Source of the DNA: Mobula hypostoma
Lineage: Eukaryota
Assembly (NCBI RefSeq): GCF_963921235.1
Contig: NC_086108.1
Location: 34,970,001 to 35,034,000, forward strand
Direction: 5' to 3'
Length of the DNA: 64,000 nucleotides
The translations under genes and the position numbers were made by a program. How positions within the stretch are numbered: the first letter of the stretch is position 1; each line of letters opens with the position of its first letter. Shown here piece by piece: positions 44,230-52,064 of this stretch. The notes under the pieces were generated by a model that saw nothing but the letters and a program-made list of their open reading frames with translations, made no database searches and was not told where the DNA came from.

Positions 44230-44318
<89 letters not shown>

Positions 44319-44739
44319 TCCCTCTCCCTCTCCCTCTCCCTCTCCCTCTCCCTCTCCCTCTCCCTCTCCCTCTCCCTCTCCCTCTCCCTCTCCCTCTCCC
44401 TCTCCCTCTCCCTCTCCCTCTCCCTCTCCCTCTCCCTCTCCCTCTCCCTCTCCCTCTCCCTCTCCCTCTCCCTCTCCCTCTCCCTCTCCCTCTCCCTCTC
44501 CCTCTCCCTCTCCCTCTCCCTCTCCCTCTCCCTCTCCCTCTCCCTCTCCCTCTCCCTCTCCCTCTCCCTCTCCCTCTCCCTCTCCCTCTCCCTCTCCCTC
44601 TCCCTCTCCCTCTCCCTCTCCCTCTCCCTCTCCCTCTCCCTCTCCCTCTCCCTCTCCCTCTCCCTCTCCCTCTCCCTCTCCCTCTCCCTCTCCCTCTCTC
44701 CCTCTCCCTCTCTCCCTCTCCCTCTCTCCCTCTCCCTCT

Positions 44740-44824
<85 letters not shown>

Positions 44825-45420
44825 CTCCCTCTCCCTCTCTCCCTCTCCCTCTCTCCCTCTCCCTCTCTCCTCTCTCCTCTCTCCCTCTCCCTCTCCCTCT
44901 CTCCCTCTCCCTCTCTCCCTCTCCCTCTCCCTCTCTCCCTCTCCCTCTCTCCCTCTCCCTCTCTCTCTCCCCCTCTCTCCCCCTCTCTCCCTCTCTCCCG
45001 CAGCAATGAGAGTGGTACACCAGCAGCTCGCTGTTGCCATCTGCCACATTGCTTCTCAGAGTCCCCCAACTCAAGGACCAAAAGGGTCTCACTCACCATT
45101 GAGAGAGAGGATCACTCAAGTGCAGGGGCGTACTGTCTCGATGTTTCAGTCTCCGAGGTGCCTCAGTTAGTGACATGGGCAAGAAAACAGGTCGTTCACA
45201 TCTTCCAGGCCGCATCTGGAGATATCAAAATGCCAGGCCACACAGTGAGTCCGAGAGCAAGAACCCATCGCCCATGGAGAACCCTGGTTTGAGCTGTATA
45301 TCATGGATTCCGACAGAACCCCAGCCTCCTTGAGAAGAAAAGAAACGTGAGTAAAGAGGAGTAAGCTGTTTCATGGACGAACTTGAAGCAATCACCTGGG
45401 TTTGCAAGAACCATCTTTTC
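43915..45420 (-). mobile_element. Non-autonomous LINE-derived element hosting the long microsatellite
   Basis: Minus strand starts AAGATGG and ends with a GT-rich 3' region and (TTGAAC)-like tail. Confidence 0.45.
44233..44999. repeat. ~770-bp pure polypyrimidine compound microsatellite (TC)n/(TCTCCC)n
   Basis: Directly visible: only C and T on the plus strand. Confidence 0.99.
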
Positions 45421-47300: not shown

Positions 47301-47713
47301 CCTACATTGAATCAAGTCCTAAGGATTAACAGCAAGGATAAAAACCTTACTCATTCTTAATTGTGCCCCTTCACTAAGGCCTCAGCTCTCAATCTCACAA
47401 TTTCTGCTCCATAAGGCCACTCCATTTAACCTTGCTTTCTATTTGTTAAAGGGCCCACCAATCAATGGGTTCTGCCCTCTTAAAGTTCCTGCTCTAACTT
47501 GCAGCACCTAAGGCACTTACTCATTTTCCTCATACCAAAGCATCTCCACTCAGCTCATTGTCACGGTGGTCACTCCACTTCATTCAACTATTTTATTGGC
47601 TGTGGCTAATTGTCAGATCACCTATTAACTTGCAATTAGTTTAGTGTCCTGTAAACAAACTCAAATCATGAGACTCGCCTTTTTTAAATTCTCTCGTTCT
47701 AAATCCCAAGTCC

Positions 47714-49739
47714 GCTGGCTGCACACGAATTAAGGCGTGCTGAGTGCCGGGGAGTTGGAAAAGAGCATGGAGGCTGCAACTGCTGAGTTGATGAAGAAAA
47801 TATCCTGTAGGATGAACAGATCGACGGATAGTGAAAGTGAGTTTGAGATGGAGGAATGGAGTGAAGAGAGTGGGGAAAGGAAACCGAGGTATGAGATGTC
47901 AAACTCTAAGGAGTCAGGGGACAAACAAAATAGGATAGCAAAACAATGGAAAGAAGATGAGATTAAAGCAATTATAGCACTGAGTGAAGACAGAGCATCT
48001 TTTGGTGAATGGAACCTGATTCATTTGATGAAGATAATCAACAAATTTATAGGTGAAGTCAAAAGACCGAAGATTTGATGAAATGGATTGCTATTAGTGA
48101 TTTATTGGGATGGTGCTCAACAAGGCAAAGTGATAAGATTAAATAAAATAGATGGCAAAAAAGTATAATGCTCAATACCCAACAATAGAAAGTGGACTAG
48201 AGGAGTTATTCTGGGGATACCAACAAAAGTTACTATGGATGAGATTAACAGAACATAAAAGCAAAAATTATTGAGGCCAAACGTTTGAAAGTTATAAGAA
48301 ATGGGAAATAGTGTGATAGTTTATCGGTTATGATCAACTTTGATGAAGAGAGATTGCCGACTAAAGTTTATTCAGGGTATATGTGTTATGAGGTCAGAAT
48401 ATATATACCACCGCCTTTAAGATGCTTTGAATGTCAGAAATTCGGGCATATTGCGGCGGTCTGCAGAGGGAAACAAAGATGTGGAAGATGCGCTGGAGAA
48501 CATGAATATGGGAAATGTGAGGCGGGAGCTAGGCTGAAATGCTGCAATTGTGGTGAGGAACATAGTGCAGCTTATCAAGGGTGCATTATTAGCAAGAAAG
48601 AAGCTGAGATACAACATGTAAAAGTAACTCAAGGGATCAGTTATGTAGAGGCAGTGAAAGTATTTGCTGGAAAAAAGAAGGCTATCAAGCAAACAAATAC
48701 AGGGAATAATAAACCGGTGAACTGTGAGGGTTGTAATATAAATAAGGACAGACTAATTATGAGTAAGAAGGATTTCGTACTGTTTATGGTAGATGCAATT
48801 AACTGTTCAGCGTAAACAGACAAAAGAACCGAAAAAATTAAAATTATAGTCAAATCTGCCAAAAAATATCTTGGTATTACAGGGCTTAGGTGGGAAGCAG
48901 TCAAAGATGTGCTGAATGGAGGATCAAACTGTTCACAGGCAGGAGATGCGAAAAAATTAATGGCTGTGTGTGTATATATATACACATATACACACACATA
49001 TATATTACAAGGGAATGCAAGGAGTATTATTGCAAATGATCAAGAATTTACGAAATATGTACCGGAATTTAAGGAAAAAAACCCTCAGATTTTATGTTAC
49101 AAGAAACATGGTTGAAACCCAGGGTAAATGTGCGGAACTCCATCAACAAATAGAAGTACTCAATAAGAACAACTGTGAGTTGGAAAGAGATTGGACGAAA
49201 CGGTACTGCATTTAAAGGAGACGATTTCTGAAAAAGATGCTTGTTGTCAAAAATTCAGTGACATGGAAAACAGATTAAAAATGGAGGAACTTATTCCAAA
49301 GTTACAAAAGGAAAAAGGAATTTGCAAAGTGAATGATCTACATTTGGATTATAAAATGAAAACATGGAAACAATTGAGGAAGAATTTCAAGATCTCAATA
49401 AACAACTACAGGCTTTGATTCAAGAAAAGGAAAATTTGGAAATAGCAGATAGACTTAGAAAACAACAATTTTAAATGTTAAGCATGCGATAATGAATAAT
49501 CTCAAGCAAGAAGCTTTTAGTTTTACAAATGATTCAAATGAAATTAATGTAATTTGAGGCAATGCAATTATTTGGAAACCACATGACAAAATTTGAGAAG
49601 GAAAACAATCTGCGGCATTGCTATTTAATGAGCACATACAGCATTTGCAAGCGGAATTATAATTGATTCTATATCCTGCAGAGGGCAGTAATACGCCTAG
49701 ATGTGTCTAAGCTGCCGGAAATAGAAGAAGAAGAAGTCG
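47714..49739 (+). mobile_element. Nimb/I-group LINE derivative: ORF1, ORF2 stub, foreign insert, 3' end
   Basis: ORF1 with three CCHC knuckles (CFECQKFGHIAAVC, CGRCAGEH, CCNCGEEHSAAYQGC); ORF2 stub ILQGNARSIIAN...QETWLKP; (GAA)n tail; TSD TCCCAAGTCC at 47704-47713 and 49740-49749. Confidence 0.85.
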
Positions 49740-49946
49740 TCCCAAGTCCTGTAAAGTGAGCCCCACTTGTAGAAGATATGCAGAAGGAAATGCACTGTTT
49801 GATCCAATGTGCCATTCGGATAGAAGAACAAAGAAAGAAGATTGTAATCTATGATTGAATAAACAAAGTAAATTAGCTTTCACTTTGGTTTTGTTTTATG
49901 TTTTGTATATCTCGGATATCAACACTCAATTTGCTGCTTTTTTAAA

Positions 49947-50660
49947 CAGTGGATTCTGGTTAATTACACATCGGTTCCAGTACATTTTGGCCCAATTAAG
50001 CGGCTGCCCCATTAGCCAAAGTTTCATGGAAGTGGTTAAAAAGGTATAATAAGACAAACTATCATTTAACCGTTTAACAAATTATGTATTTAAATGAAAT
50101 ACAGAACAAATTAGGACACCACCAAAACTACTACACCACCAAAACTGAGGGTTCCTGATGGTTATTGACAGGGGAATTAATCCAGTTTACACTGCTATGT
50201 TCTTTTGATTGTACATGAATAAAATCATTGCAGATACCTAGTGCGGACAATGGACTGCCTTCAAATCTTCATTTTCATTGTAACATTCAAGATGCTTGTT
50301 GATATGTTTTTACATTTTTCATAGTTCCTAACTTGAAGTAGTAAAATTGTTTCATTTTCCCTCCTGGCTGATTCTGACATCTCAAAGCCTGAATGCTTGA
50401 AACTGCAGTGAGCAAAACAGTTCTGAATTGTCTTGCTGCTTATTTCTCACCAACTGTCAATGACAAAAATAACTTGCTTTTTTTTAAGCACAAACTCATG
50501 GTTGTGACGCTATTTTAAAAACTTCACTCTAAGCATGGTGCAGTGTCTAACAGCCCAACGGCATGCATGCAACTGATGCTCACAGTCTGCTGTCCCAATT
50601 AAGTGGCATAGTGTCCCAAATAAAGGGAATCCTGGCTATTGTCTCAATGTGTTCTTGTTC
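49947..50660 (+). mobile_element. Tigger-like non-autonomous element (related pieces at ~42950-43132 and ~60010-60510)
   Basis: Terminus CAGTGGATTCTGGTTAATT; reverse-complement termini AATCCACTG|TA at ~43132 and ~60510; shared internal sequence. Confidence 0.65.
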
Positions 50661-50814
50661 TTCCCCTCTGCCATCCGATTCCTAAATGGACTTTGAAGCT
50701 TTGGACACTACCTCACTTTTTTTTAATATACAGTACTTCTGTTTTTGCACATTTAAGAAAAAATCTGTTCAATATATGTAATTGATTCACTTGTTATATT
50801 TATTATGCTTTATC

Positions 50815-52064
50815 TCTCTGGCCCTACATTCCTCCTTAGAACACCTGGAGAATAAAGATGCATACGTAAGGCTCCTTTTCATTGACTACAGCTCTGCCTT
50901 TAATACCATCATTCCAAATAAACTGATTCCTAAGCTCCGGACCCTGGGCCTTAACACTCAGATCTGCAGCTGGATCTTCAACTTCCTCACAGACAGGACC
51001 CAGGCTGTAAAAATAGGGGACAAGCTCTCCTCTGCAATCACTCTGAGCACCTGTGCCCCACAAGGCTCTATACTCAGCCCCTTGCTGTACTTACTGTACA
51101 CCCATGATTGTGTAGCCAAGTTTCCATCGAACTCAATATATAAGTTTGCTGATGACACAACAATTGTAGGCCGTATCTTGGGTAATGATGAGTTTGGGTA
51201 CAGAGAGCAAATTGAGAACCAGGTGGCATGGTGCGAAGACAATAACCTATCCCTCAATGTCAGAAAGACGAAGGAATTGGTTGTTGACTTCAGAAGGAGT
51301 AGCGGACTGCACGACCCAATTTACATTGGTCGTGCGCAAGTGGAACAGGTCAAAAGCTTTAAGTTCCTTGAGGTCAGTATCACAAATGACCTGACTTGGT
51401 CCAACCAAGCAGAGCTCACTGCCAAGAAGGCCCACCAGCGCCTTTACTTCCTGAGAAAACTAAAGAAATTTGGCCTGTCCCCTAAAACCCTCACTAATTT
51501 TTATAGATGCACCGTAGAAAGCATTCTTCTAGGGTGCATCACAACCTGGAATGGAAGTTGTCCTGTCCAAGACCGAAAGAAGCTGCAGAAGATCGTGAAC
51601 ACAGCGCAGCACATCACACAAACCAATCTTCTGTCCTTGGACTTACTTTACACCACACGCTGTCGGAGCAGTGCTGCCAGGATAATCAAGGACACGACCC
51701 ACCCTGCCAACACACTTTTCGTCCCTCTTCCCTCCGGGAGAAGGTTCAGGAGCTTGAAGGCTCGTACGGCCAGATTTGGGAACAGCTTCTTTCCAGCTGT
51801 GATATGACTGCTGAATGGAGCCTGACTCGGATCTGGGCCGTACCCTCCAAATATCCGGACCTGCCTCTCTTTGCACTACCTTACTTCCCATTTTTCTATT
51901 TTCTATTTATGATTTATAATTTAAATTTTTAATATTTACTAATTTTAACTATTTTTAATATTTAATATTTGTAATCCAGGGAGTGTGAAGCGCAGAATCA
52001 AATATCGCTGTGATGATTGTACGTTCTAGTACCAATTGTTTGGCGACAATAAAGTATAAAGTAT
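50815..52064 (+). mobile_element. Young Rex1/Babar LINE with long open RT frame, nested in an older Rex1-type 3' end
   Basis: ORF 50782-51807 has [28 protein letters not shown] and YKFADDT; tail AATAAAGTATAAAGTAT. Host element at 50660-50815 and 52065-52165. Confidence 0.93.

Follow-up and report, generated by a model that had tools for sequence, protein, structure and literature searches.

A putative ORF1-only I-group LINE family with a GCC2 exon fragment and an exchanged 3' tail in a ray genome

Bipartite non-autonomous LINEs in which ORF1 is present include HAL1 (from L1), HeT-A (from Jockey) and Ag-Sponge (from CR1) (PMC5786205, PMC5753468). Captures of host sequence are described for telomeric elements of Drosophila, involving nxf2 (TART-nxf2), piwi and aub; the pieces measure 140-235 bp, piRNA genes are their main source and there is evidence of targeting; some of the elements had lost ORF2, and a silencing shield has been proposed for them (PMC13534243). 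Tail exchange between LINE partners is known for SINEs (PMC5786205), and both tripartite LINE chimeric retrogenes and double template jumps have been reported (PMC2104539). SVA_F1, which acquired its MAST2 exon by way of host transcription, and the gibbon element PVA are non-coding and mobilised by L1 (PMC5753468).

We analysed a LINE chimera in a 64,000-nucleotide stretch of Mobula hypostoma DNA (the window). The element occupies 47714-49739 (~2 kb) on the forward strand and is flanked on both sides by TCCCAAGTCC. It combines sequences of two LINE families, here called X and Y, with a piece of the host golgin gene GCC2 (GRIP and coiled-coil domain protein 2). Three subfamilies of the chimera (A, B and C) are distinguished below, and the window copy belongs to A. 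Its features are as follows.

47704-47713, + strand: left target-site duplication of 10 bp, TCCCAAGTCC (direct reading and empty sites in organisms E and F)
47714-47750, + strand: 5' segment of 37 bp, absent from other subfamily A copies (copy comparison)
47767-48960, + strand: family X ORF1 with three zinc knuckles, broken in this copy (reading and copy comparison)
48960-49119, + strand: dead N-terminal stub of the family X apurinic endonuclease, ending at QETWLKP (alignment to X)
49120-49664, + strand: captured sense fragment of a GCC2 exon, rich in E, K, Q and L (alignment to GCC2)
49658-49723, + strand: 3' terminal segment of family Y, not of family X (tail comparison)
49724-49736, + strand: (GAA)4G tail, with (GAA)4 at 49724-49735 (direct reading)
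49740-49749, + strand: right target-site duplication (direct reading and empty sites)

Contigs of organisms E and F run from the left flank straight to 49739, with both flanks covered by one single contig. The duplication is real and the insertion lineage-specific, because empty sites were found in two other organisms; this agrees with a preliminary description of the locus, which had read it as a 2-kb unit bounded by target-site duplications. Given the empty sites, an alternative 10-bp repeat, GTCCTGTAAA, lying 60 bp outside the element, is not the duplication. The element does begin at 47714 as that description had it, but its first 37 bases (47714-47750) are not common to other copies: the alignment of those mostly begins at 47751, and their 5' ends differ from copy to copy. 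Alternative G-rich segments, some common to groups of copies, were observed at the 5' ends of subfamily A (L111-L124 and the window segment itself). Elsewhere in the window, a very high-copy short repeat lies directly to the right of the element at 49930-50100 (contig depth in four other organisms), and a (TCTCCC)n array of 755 bp with about 123 copies occupies 44233-44987. An open frame of 341 aa at 50782-51807 encodes the C-terminal part of another LINE reverse transcriptase (PF00078, PF09004), which we take to be of Rex1 type.

The gag-like ORF1 of the preliminary description corresponds to the frame at 47767-48960 with its three CCHC-type knuckles. These Cys/His motifs were read directly, none being above the Pfam cut-off, and a Pfam scan of the window's own frames gave no match above cut-off for the element. 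An ORF1 with three gag-like zinc knuckles is typical of the I group. The endonuclease start that was said to end at QETWLKP is likewise present, and this 160-bp broken stub is all that remains of ORF2 in the element. The stub carries lesions common to subfamily A (a W-to-G change, a microsatellite expansion and a 1-nt deletion), and the ORF1 of the window copy has private stops and frameshifts. The copy in the window is dead and decayed.

The E/K/Q/L-rich middle, from which peptides in shifting frames had been quoted, lies at 49120-49664 and derives from GCC2, not from a normal ORF2 or 3' UTR or from a nested element. A donor search had been proposed, and we ran it with a frame of 103 aa that occurs naturally in a sister copy; this query matched GCC2 of two rays with 81-83% identity, and only GCC2 was matched (2 proteins among 73 candidates). 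The idea of a captured host fragment is thereby confirmed, and a viral source for the insert was ruled out, since the protein search matched GCC2 only. The 545-bp segment matches, on the sense strand, the central part of one internal GCC2 exon of 2.5 kb, corresponding approximately to aa 655-849 of the GCC2 protein P0002, and differs from the host exon by 9.7% substitutions. The loss of introns is uninformative here, because the fragment sits inside one exon. The host GCC2 gene was found at one location in this genome. Searches for a second GCC2 copy or a pseudogene donor, using DNA from upstream of the captured part and protein sequence from downstream of it, matched the gene only (1 match each), and no short annotated GCC2-like proteins were present among 2,582 candidates.

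Of 546 candidates for the insert itself, 41 were scored as matches, and the LINE context was the same in 30/30 loci examined. A 45-bp deletion and several frameshifts relative to GCC2 occur in at least 90% of 30 copies, and the cargo was thus already dead in the source element. An open insert fused to the ORF2 stub had been envisaged; this does not hold, and coding cargo of either kind is excluded by the offset of the GCC2 frame from the stub frame together with the five frameshifts and in-frame stops of the insert majority. The copies diverge by a mean of 5.1% from their majority. At 17 comparable residues that differ between host and stingray GCC2, the insert agrees with the stingray at 8, with the host at 5 and with neither at 4. 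This comparison indicates capture before most of the host-lineage changes, and we date the capture as likely near the split of the host and stingray lineages.

Copies of family X, which is autonomous, match the ORF1 and stub as far as the exact junction, beyond which they run on as a normal endonuclease, the frame beyond the stub point matching PF14529/PF03372. The 5' junction with GCC2 is blunt, with zero microhomology; a search for X parents with a pattern that presumed microhomology matched only 2 mutated chimeras. There are 53 candidates for full-length X parents. Family X has domains above cut-off for endonuclease, reverse transcriptase and RNase H (PF14529, PF00078, PF00075). In family Y, PF14529 was above cut-off and RNase_H scored 25.0 bits against a cut-off of 25.8 in a truncated frame, in a profile scan that did not include the Y reverse transcriptase. 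One Y copy of full length encodes an ORF1 and an endonuclease of its own, and protein segments of X and Y are about 24-62% identical. On the basis of these predicted proteins, we assign both parents to the I-group non-LTR retrotransposons. Having RNase H and GAA tails, they do not have the L1 origin of HAL1 proper. The label Nimb for the element, taken from its resemblance to fish elements, is a tentative one. Nimbus has been placed in the I superfamily (PMC11203168).

The short 3' end and GAA tail noted in the preliminary description are present, but they come from a LINE family other than that of ORF1: the X 3' end is unlike the window tail, which matches family Y. A window-tail pattern had 68 exact matches, the first 30 of which comprised 6 type A copies, 4 type B copies and 20 members of family Y. 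At 49658-49664, GCC2 and the Y tail overlap imperfectly. An internal deletion of a single parent was rejected for A and B, because their tail comes from another family.

A, B and C have one common 5' junction, whereas each of them has a 3' junction of its own. A and C also have an in-frame stop and several indels in common, and B has the 5' junction of A and most of its lesions. Subfamily B (26 matches to its junction pattern) switches to Y about 85 bases earlier than A, at a 2-nt overlap; at the tail junctions of A and B, two LINE sequences are joined with a 1-2 nt overlap. Subfamily C has a longer GCC2 piece and an X tail, preceded by about 38 bases without a clear source. Across the subfamilies the captured piece is 545-640 bp long. 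A pattern specific to the C ORF1 had 121 exact matches; of those examined, 30/30 had GCC2 and 27/30 had the X tail. The 5'-junction pattern had 46 exact matches. By recapture (10/30 for C, and 23/56 for A and B against the 46 matches), we estimated about 360 copies of C and about 110 of A and B together, or about 470 chimeras in all, numbers that are likely low since the samples favour well-preserved copies. The shared junctions and the several hundred copies bear out the earlier suggestion that the chimera moved as a unit and forms a multi-copy non-autonomous family. Repeats of at least 8 bp were found near both ends of 9/16 B and 9/20 C copies, by a crude search in which some tails went undetected and some matches arose by chance. 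Sequence of the chimera family occurs in six of the coded organisms, with depth for the insert in four of them, and a contig of organism F crosses the C 3' junction.

An ORF1 tree was built from 52 copies (at most 14 per subfamily plus 10 from X, each with more than 600 aligned bases). C forms one clade and A plus B another, with B inside the A-tailed copies; B and most A copies are set apart from two basal A-tailed copies with support of 99/96. No supported branch of this tree sets C and A/B together apart from X, and some of the X copies lie near the centre. The best reading is that the three subfamilies come from one capture, and the most economical course of events starts from a capture with an X tail, followed by two successive swaps to Y.

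Derivatives without most or all of the GCC2 piece were also seen (L058 together with L090, L088 and L111). In L088 (1436-3231, G000:C12), an A-type ORF1 is joined directly to about 550 bases of the Y 3' end; this is a further independent switch to Y. Copies of X, Y and the chimera often stand head to tail (L170:1-1200, L079:1690-2200, L168:919-1300), a full X element beginning shortly after the GAA tail of another element. Among distinct copies at loci L001-L030, L126-L151 and L172-L231 and at 17 family Y loci, 44/115 directly precede one of five recurrent 3'-flank motifs (12/27 A, 9/21 B, 21/51 C and 2/16 Y; counts without a chance control), which suggests a target preference inside other repeats. 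One of the five motifs presumably belongs with Tc1-like elements, which it resembles.

We consider it probable that the chimera is an ORF1-only non-autonomous I-group LINE, made of the X ORF1 and stub, the GCC2 piece and a Y tail, and likely copied in trans by the Y reverse transcriptase. In the founder, the X reverse transcriptase would have started on the X tail, jumped to GCC2 mRNA and then back to X RNA, a double jump that would delete nearly all of ORF2 and give the type C layout. Later, the Y enzyme would have started on Y RNA and jumped onto the chimera RNA, producing type A, and a second such jump further upstream would have produced type B. The element would thus supply its ORF1 protein in cis and borrow the ORF2 protein from a partner. 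We propose mobilisation in trans by the partner's ORF2 protein because of the tails common to the element and Y. Like the preliminary description, we take template switching from an mRNA to be the likely route of the capture, although the captured piece holds no intron junction that would mark an RNA intermediate.

Capture could instead have occurred at the DNA level, through break repair from the GCC2 exon or through rearrangement of an X copy in or near GCC2, with subsequent spread. The confinement of the fragment to a single exon, the blunt 5' junction and the bases without an assigned source at the C 3' junction would all suit this route. We nevertheless find it unlikely: the fragment is sense-oriented, 30 kb of the GCC2 locus contained no element match apart from the exon itself, the short overlaps at the tail swaps fit template jumping by these enzymes, and LINEs are known to make double template jumps (PMC2104539).

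The ORF1 sequences bear on how the trans-copied chimera was maintained. In the majority sequences of all three subfamilies ORF1 has an open frame; the A majority seems shifted because it mixes two in-frame variants that lie 3 nt from each other. The ORF1 N-terminus differs among A, B, C and X, and in A, B and C it starts with ATG. All rates given here were computed from majority sequences of 11-30 selected copies. When C is compared with A and with B, ORF1 gives dN/dS values of 0.28-0.35 (p about 1e-5 to 1e-7), or 0.27-0.34 once CpG sites are removed. In these comparisons dN is 0.05-0.065 and dS 0.17-0.20, near the insert divergence (0.14-0.16); by branch, dN/dS is 0.22 for A, 0.30 for B, 0.38 for C and 0.13 for X. 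B and C differ by 0 frameshifts in 1,110 nt of ORF1, where about 17 are expected; across the 603 nt that make up stub and insert they differ by 9. The stub beside ORF1 decayed separately in each subfamily. The A and B cores differ by 7 synonymous and 7 nonsynonymous changes (p=0.017; p=0.06 without CpG sites), and the signal of selection among the Y-tailed lineages alone is weak. The best reading of these patterns is that ORF1 was kept open by selection while the stub and insert decayed. If the ORF1 protein were required in cis in each round of copying, the gene would be kept open and the GCC2 piece would decay as a passenger.

ORF1 might also have stayed open through renewal, its 5' half being repeatedly replaced by unsampled autonomous X-like subfamilies, so that it was never selected in the chimera. 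Such renewal would fit the star-like ORF1 tree with X copies near the node, the 5' ends, which were clearly replaced more than once, and the frequent template switching in the family. Against it, 0/30 C-type ORF1 matches run into endonuclease and 0/14 A-type 5'-end matches continue autonomously within 1.5 kb (3 were interrupted early). The dS of ORF1 is moreover close to the insert divergence, and the decay of the adjoining stub is separate in each subfamily. We regard renewal as improbable.

That the GCC2 piece is useful cargo, kept for piRNAs against the host gene or for shielding from silencing, would suit its retention in nearly all sampled copies, the excess of chimeras over full-length X parents and the denser host-lineage amino-acid changes in the captured region (10/210 versus 26/1,465 elsewhere, p=0.01), but we hold it to be very improbable, as the excess of changes is gone after controlling for local constraint by the sawfish branch (p=0.35-0.67), the insert suffered large deletions (45 and about 127 bp) and became shorter with every tail swap, copies without most or all of the piece exist (L058, L088, L111), and GCC2 is to our knowledge not a known silencing gene. 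The GCC2 piece is likely a passenger, with no function of the cargo evident.

For the trans-copied chimera with its maintained ORF1, it is a serious possibility, short of a probable one, that the tail-swapped element kept a selected X ORF1 protein while relying on the Y ORF2 protein, whose identity to X is only about 30-50%. If so, a functional particle would be assembled from ORF1 and ORF2 proteins of I-group families far removed from each other, the choice of enzyme would lie with the 3' tail alone, and a parasite with only ORF1 could last longer than its parent by switching to another partner. The family would then offer an evolutionary test of the specificity of ORF1p-ORF2p pairing in tail-recognising LINEs. 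On a practical level, the several hundred scattered GCC2-like fragments can mislead ray annotation and read mapping.

We found no description of this chimera family in the literature searched, a search that had the repeat databases Repbase and Dfam outside its scope. The donor gene, the foreign tail and the apparent selection on ORF1 extend the preliminary description. Like HAL1, HeT-A and Ag-Sponge, the chimera retains ORF1 together with the 3' end of a LINE, has no functional ORF2 and multiplied as a unit. Unlike them, it derives from the I group, which is not listed with them in the cited portions of PMC5786205 and PMC5753468; it carries a host exon fragment in place of ORF2, and in A and B the ORF1 and tail come from different families. 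It resembles the Drosophila telomeric captures as a non-LTR family with a host coding fragment, but the ray piece is longer (545-640 bp), comes from a Golgi gene, is dispersed and shows no acceleration of the host gene once constraint is controlled. As in SINE tail exchange and tripartite retrogenes, different RNA templates were probably fused and a 3' recognition tail was replaced. The ray tail-swapper differs from the SINEs in encoding a protein that appears to be under selection, and its tripartite product founded a family of hundreds, unlike the tripartite retrogenes, which are single pseudogenes. With SVA_F1 and PVA it forms a further case of a vertebrate non-autonomous retroelement family carrying a piece of a host exon, although its junctions, unlike those of SVA_F1, are internal to the exon. 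What is distinctive is the serial change of partner by a protein-coding non-autonomous LINE. The steps by which a LINE gains a host exon piece, becomes an ORF1-only parasite and changes its enzyme partner are visible here, with all stages (X, Y, C, A, B and the GCC2-less derivatives) kept in one genome.
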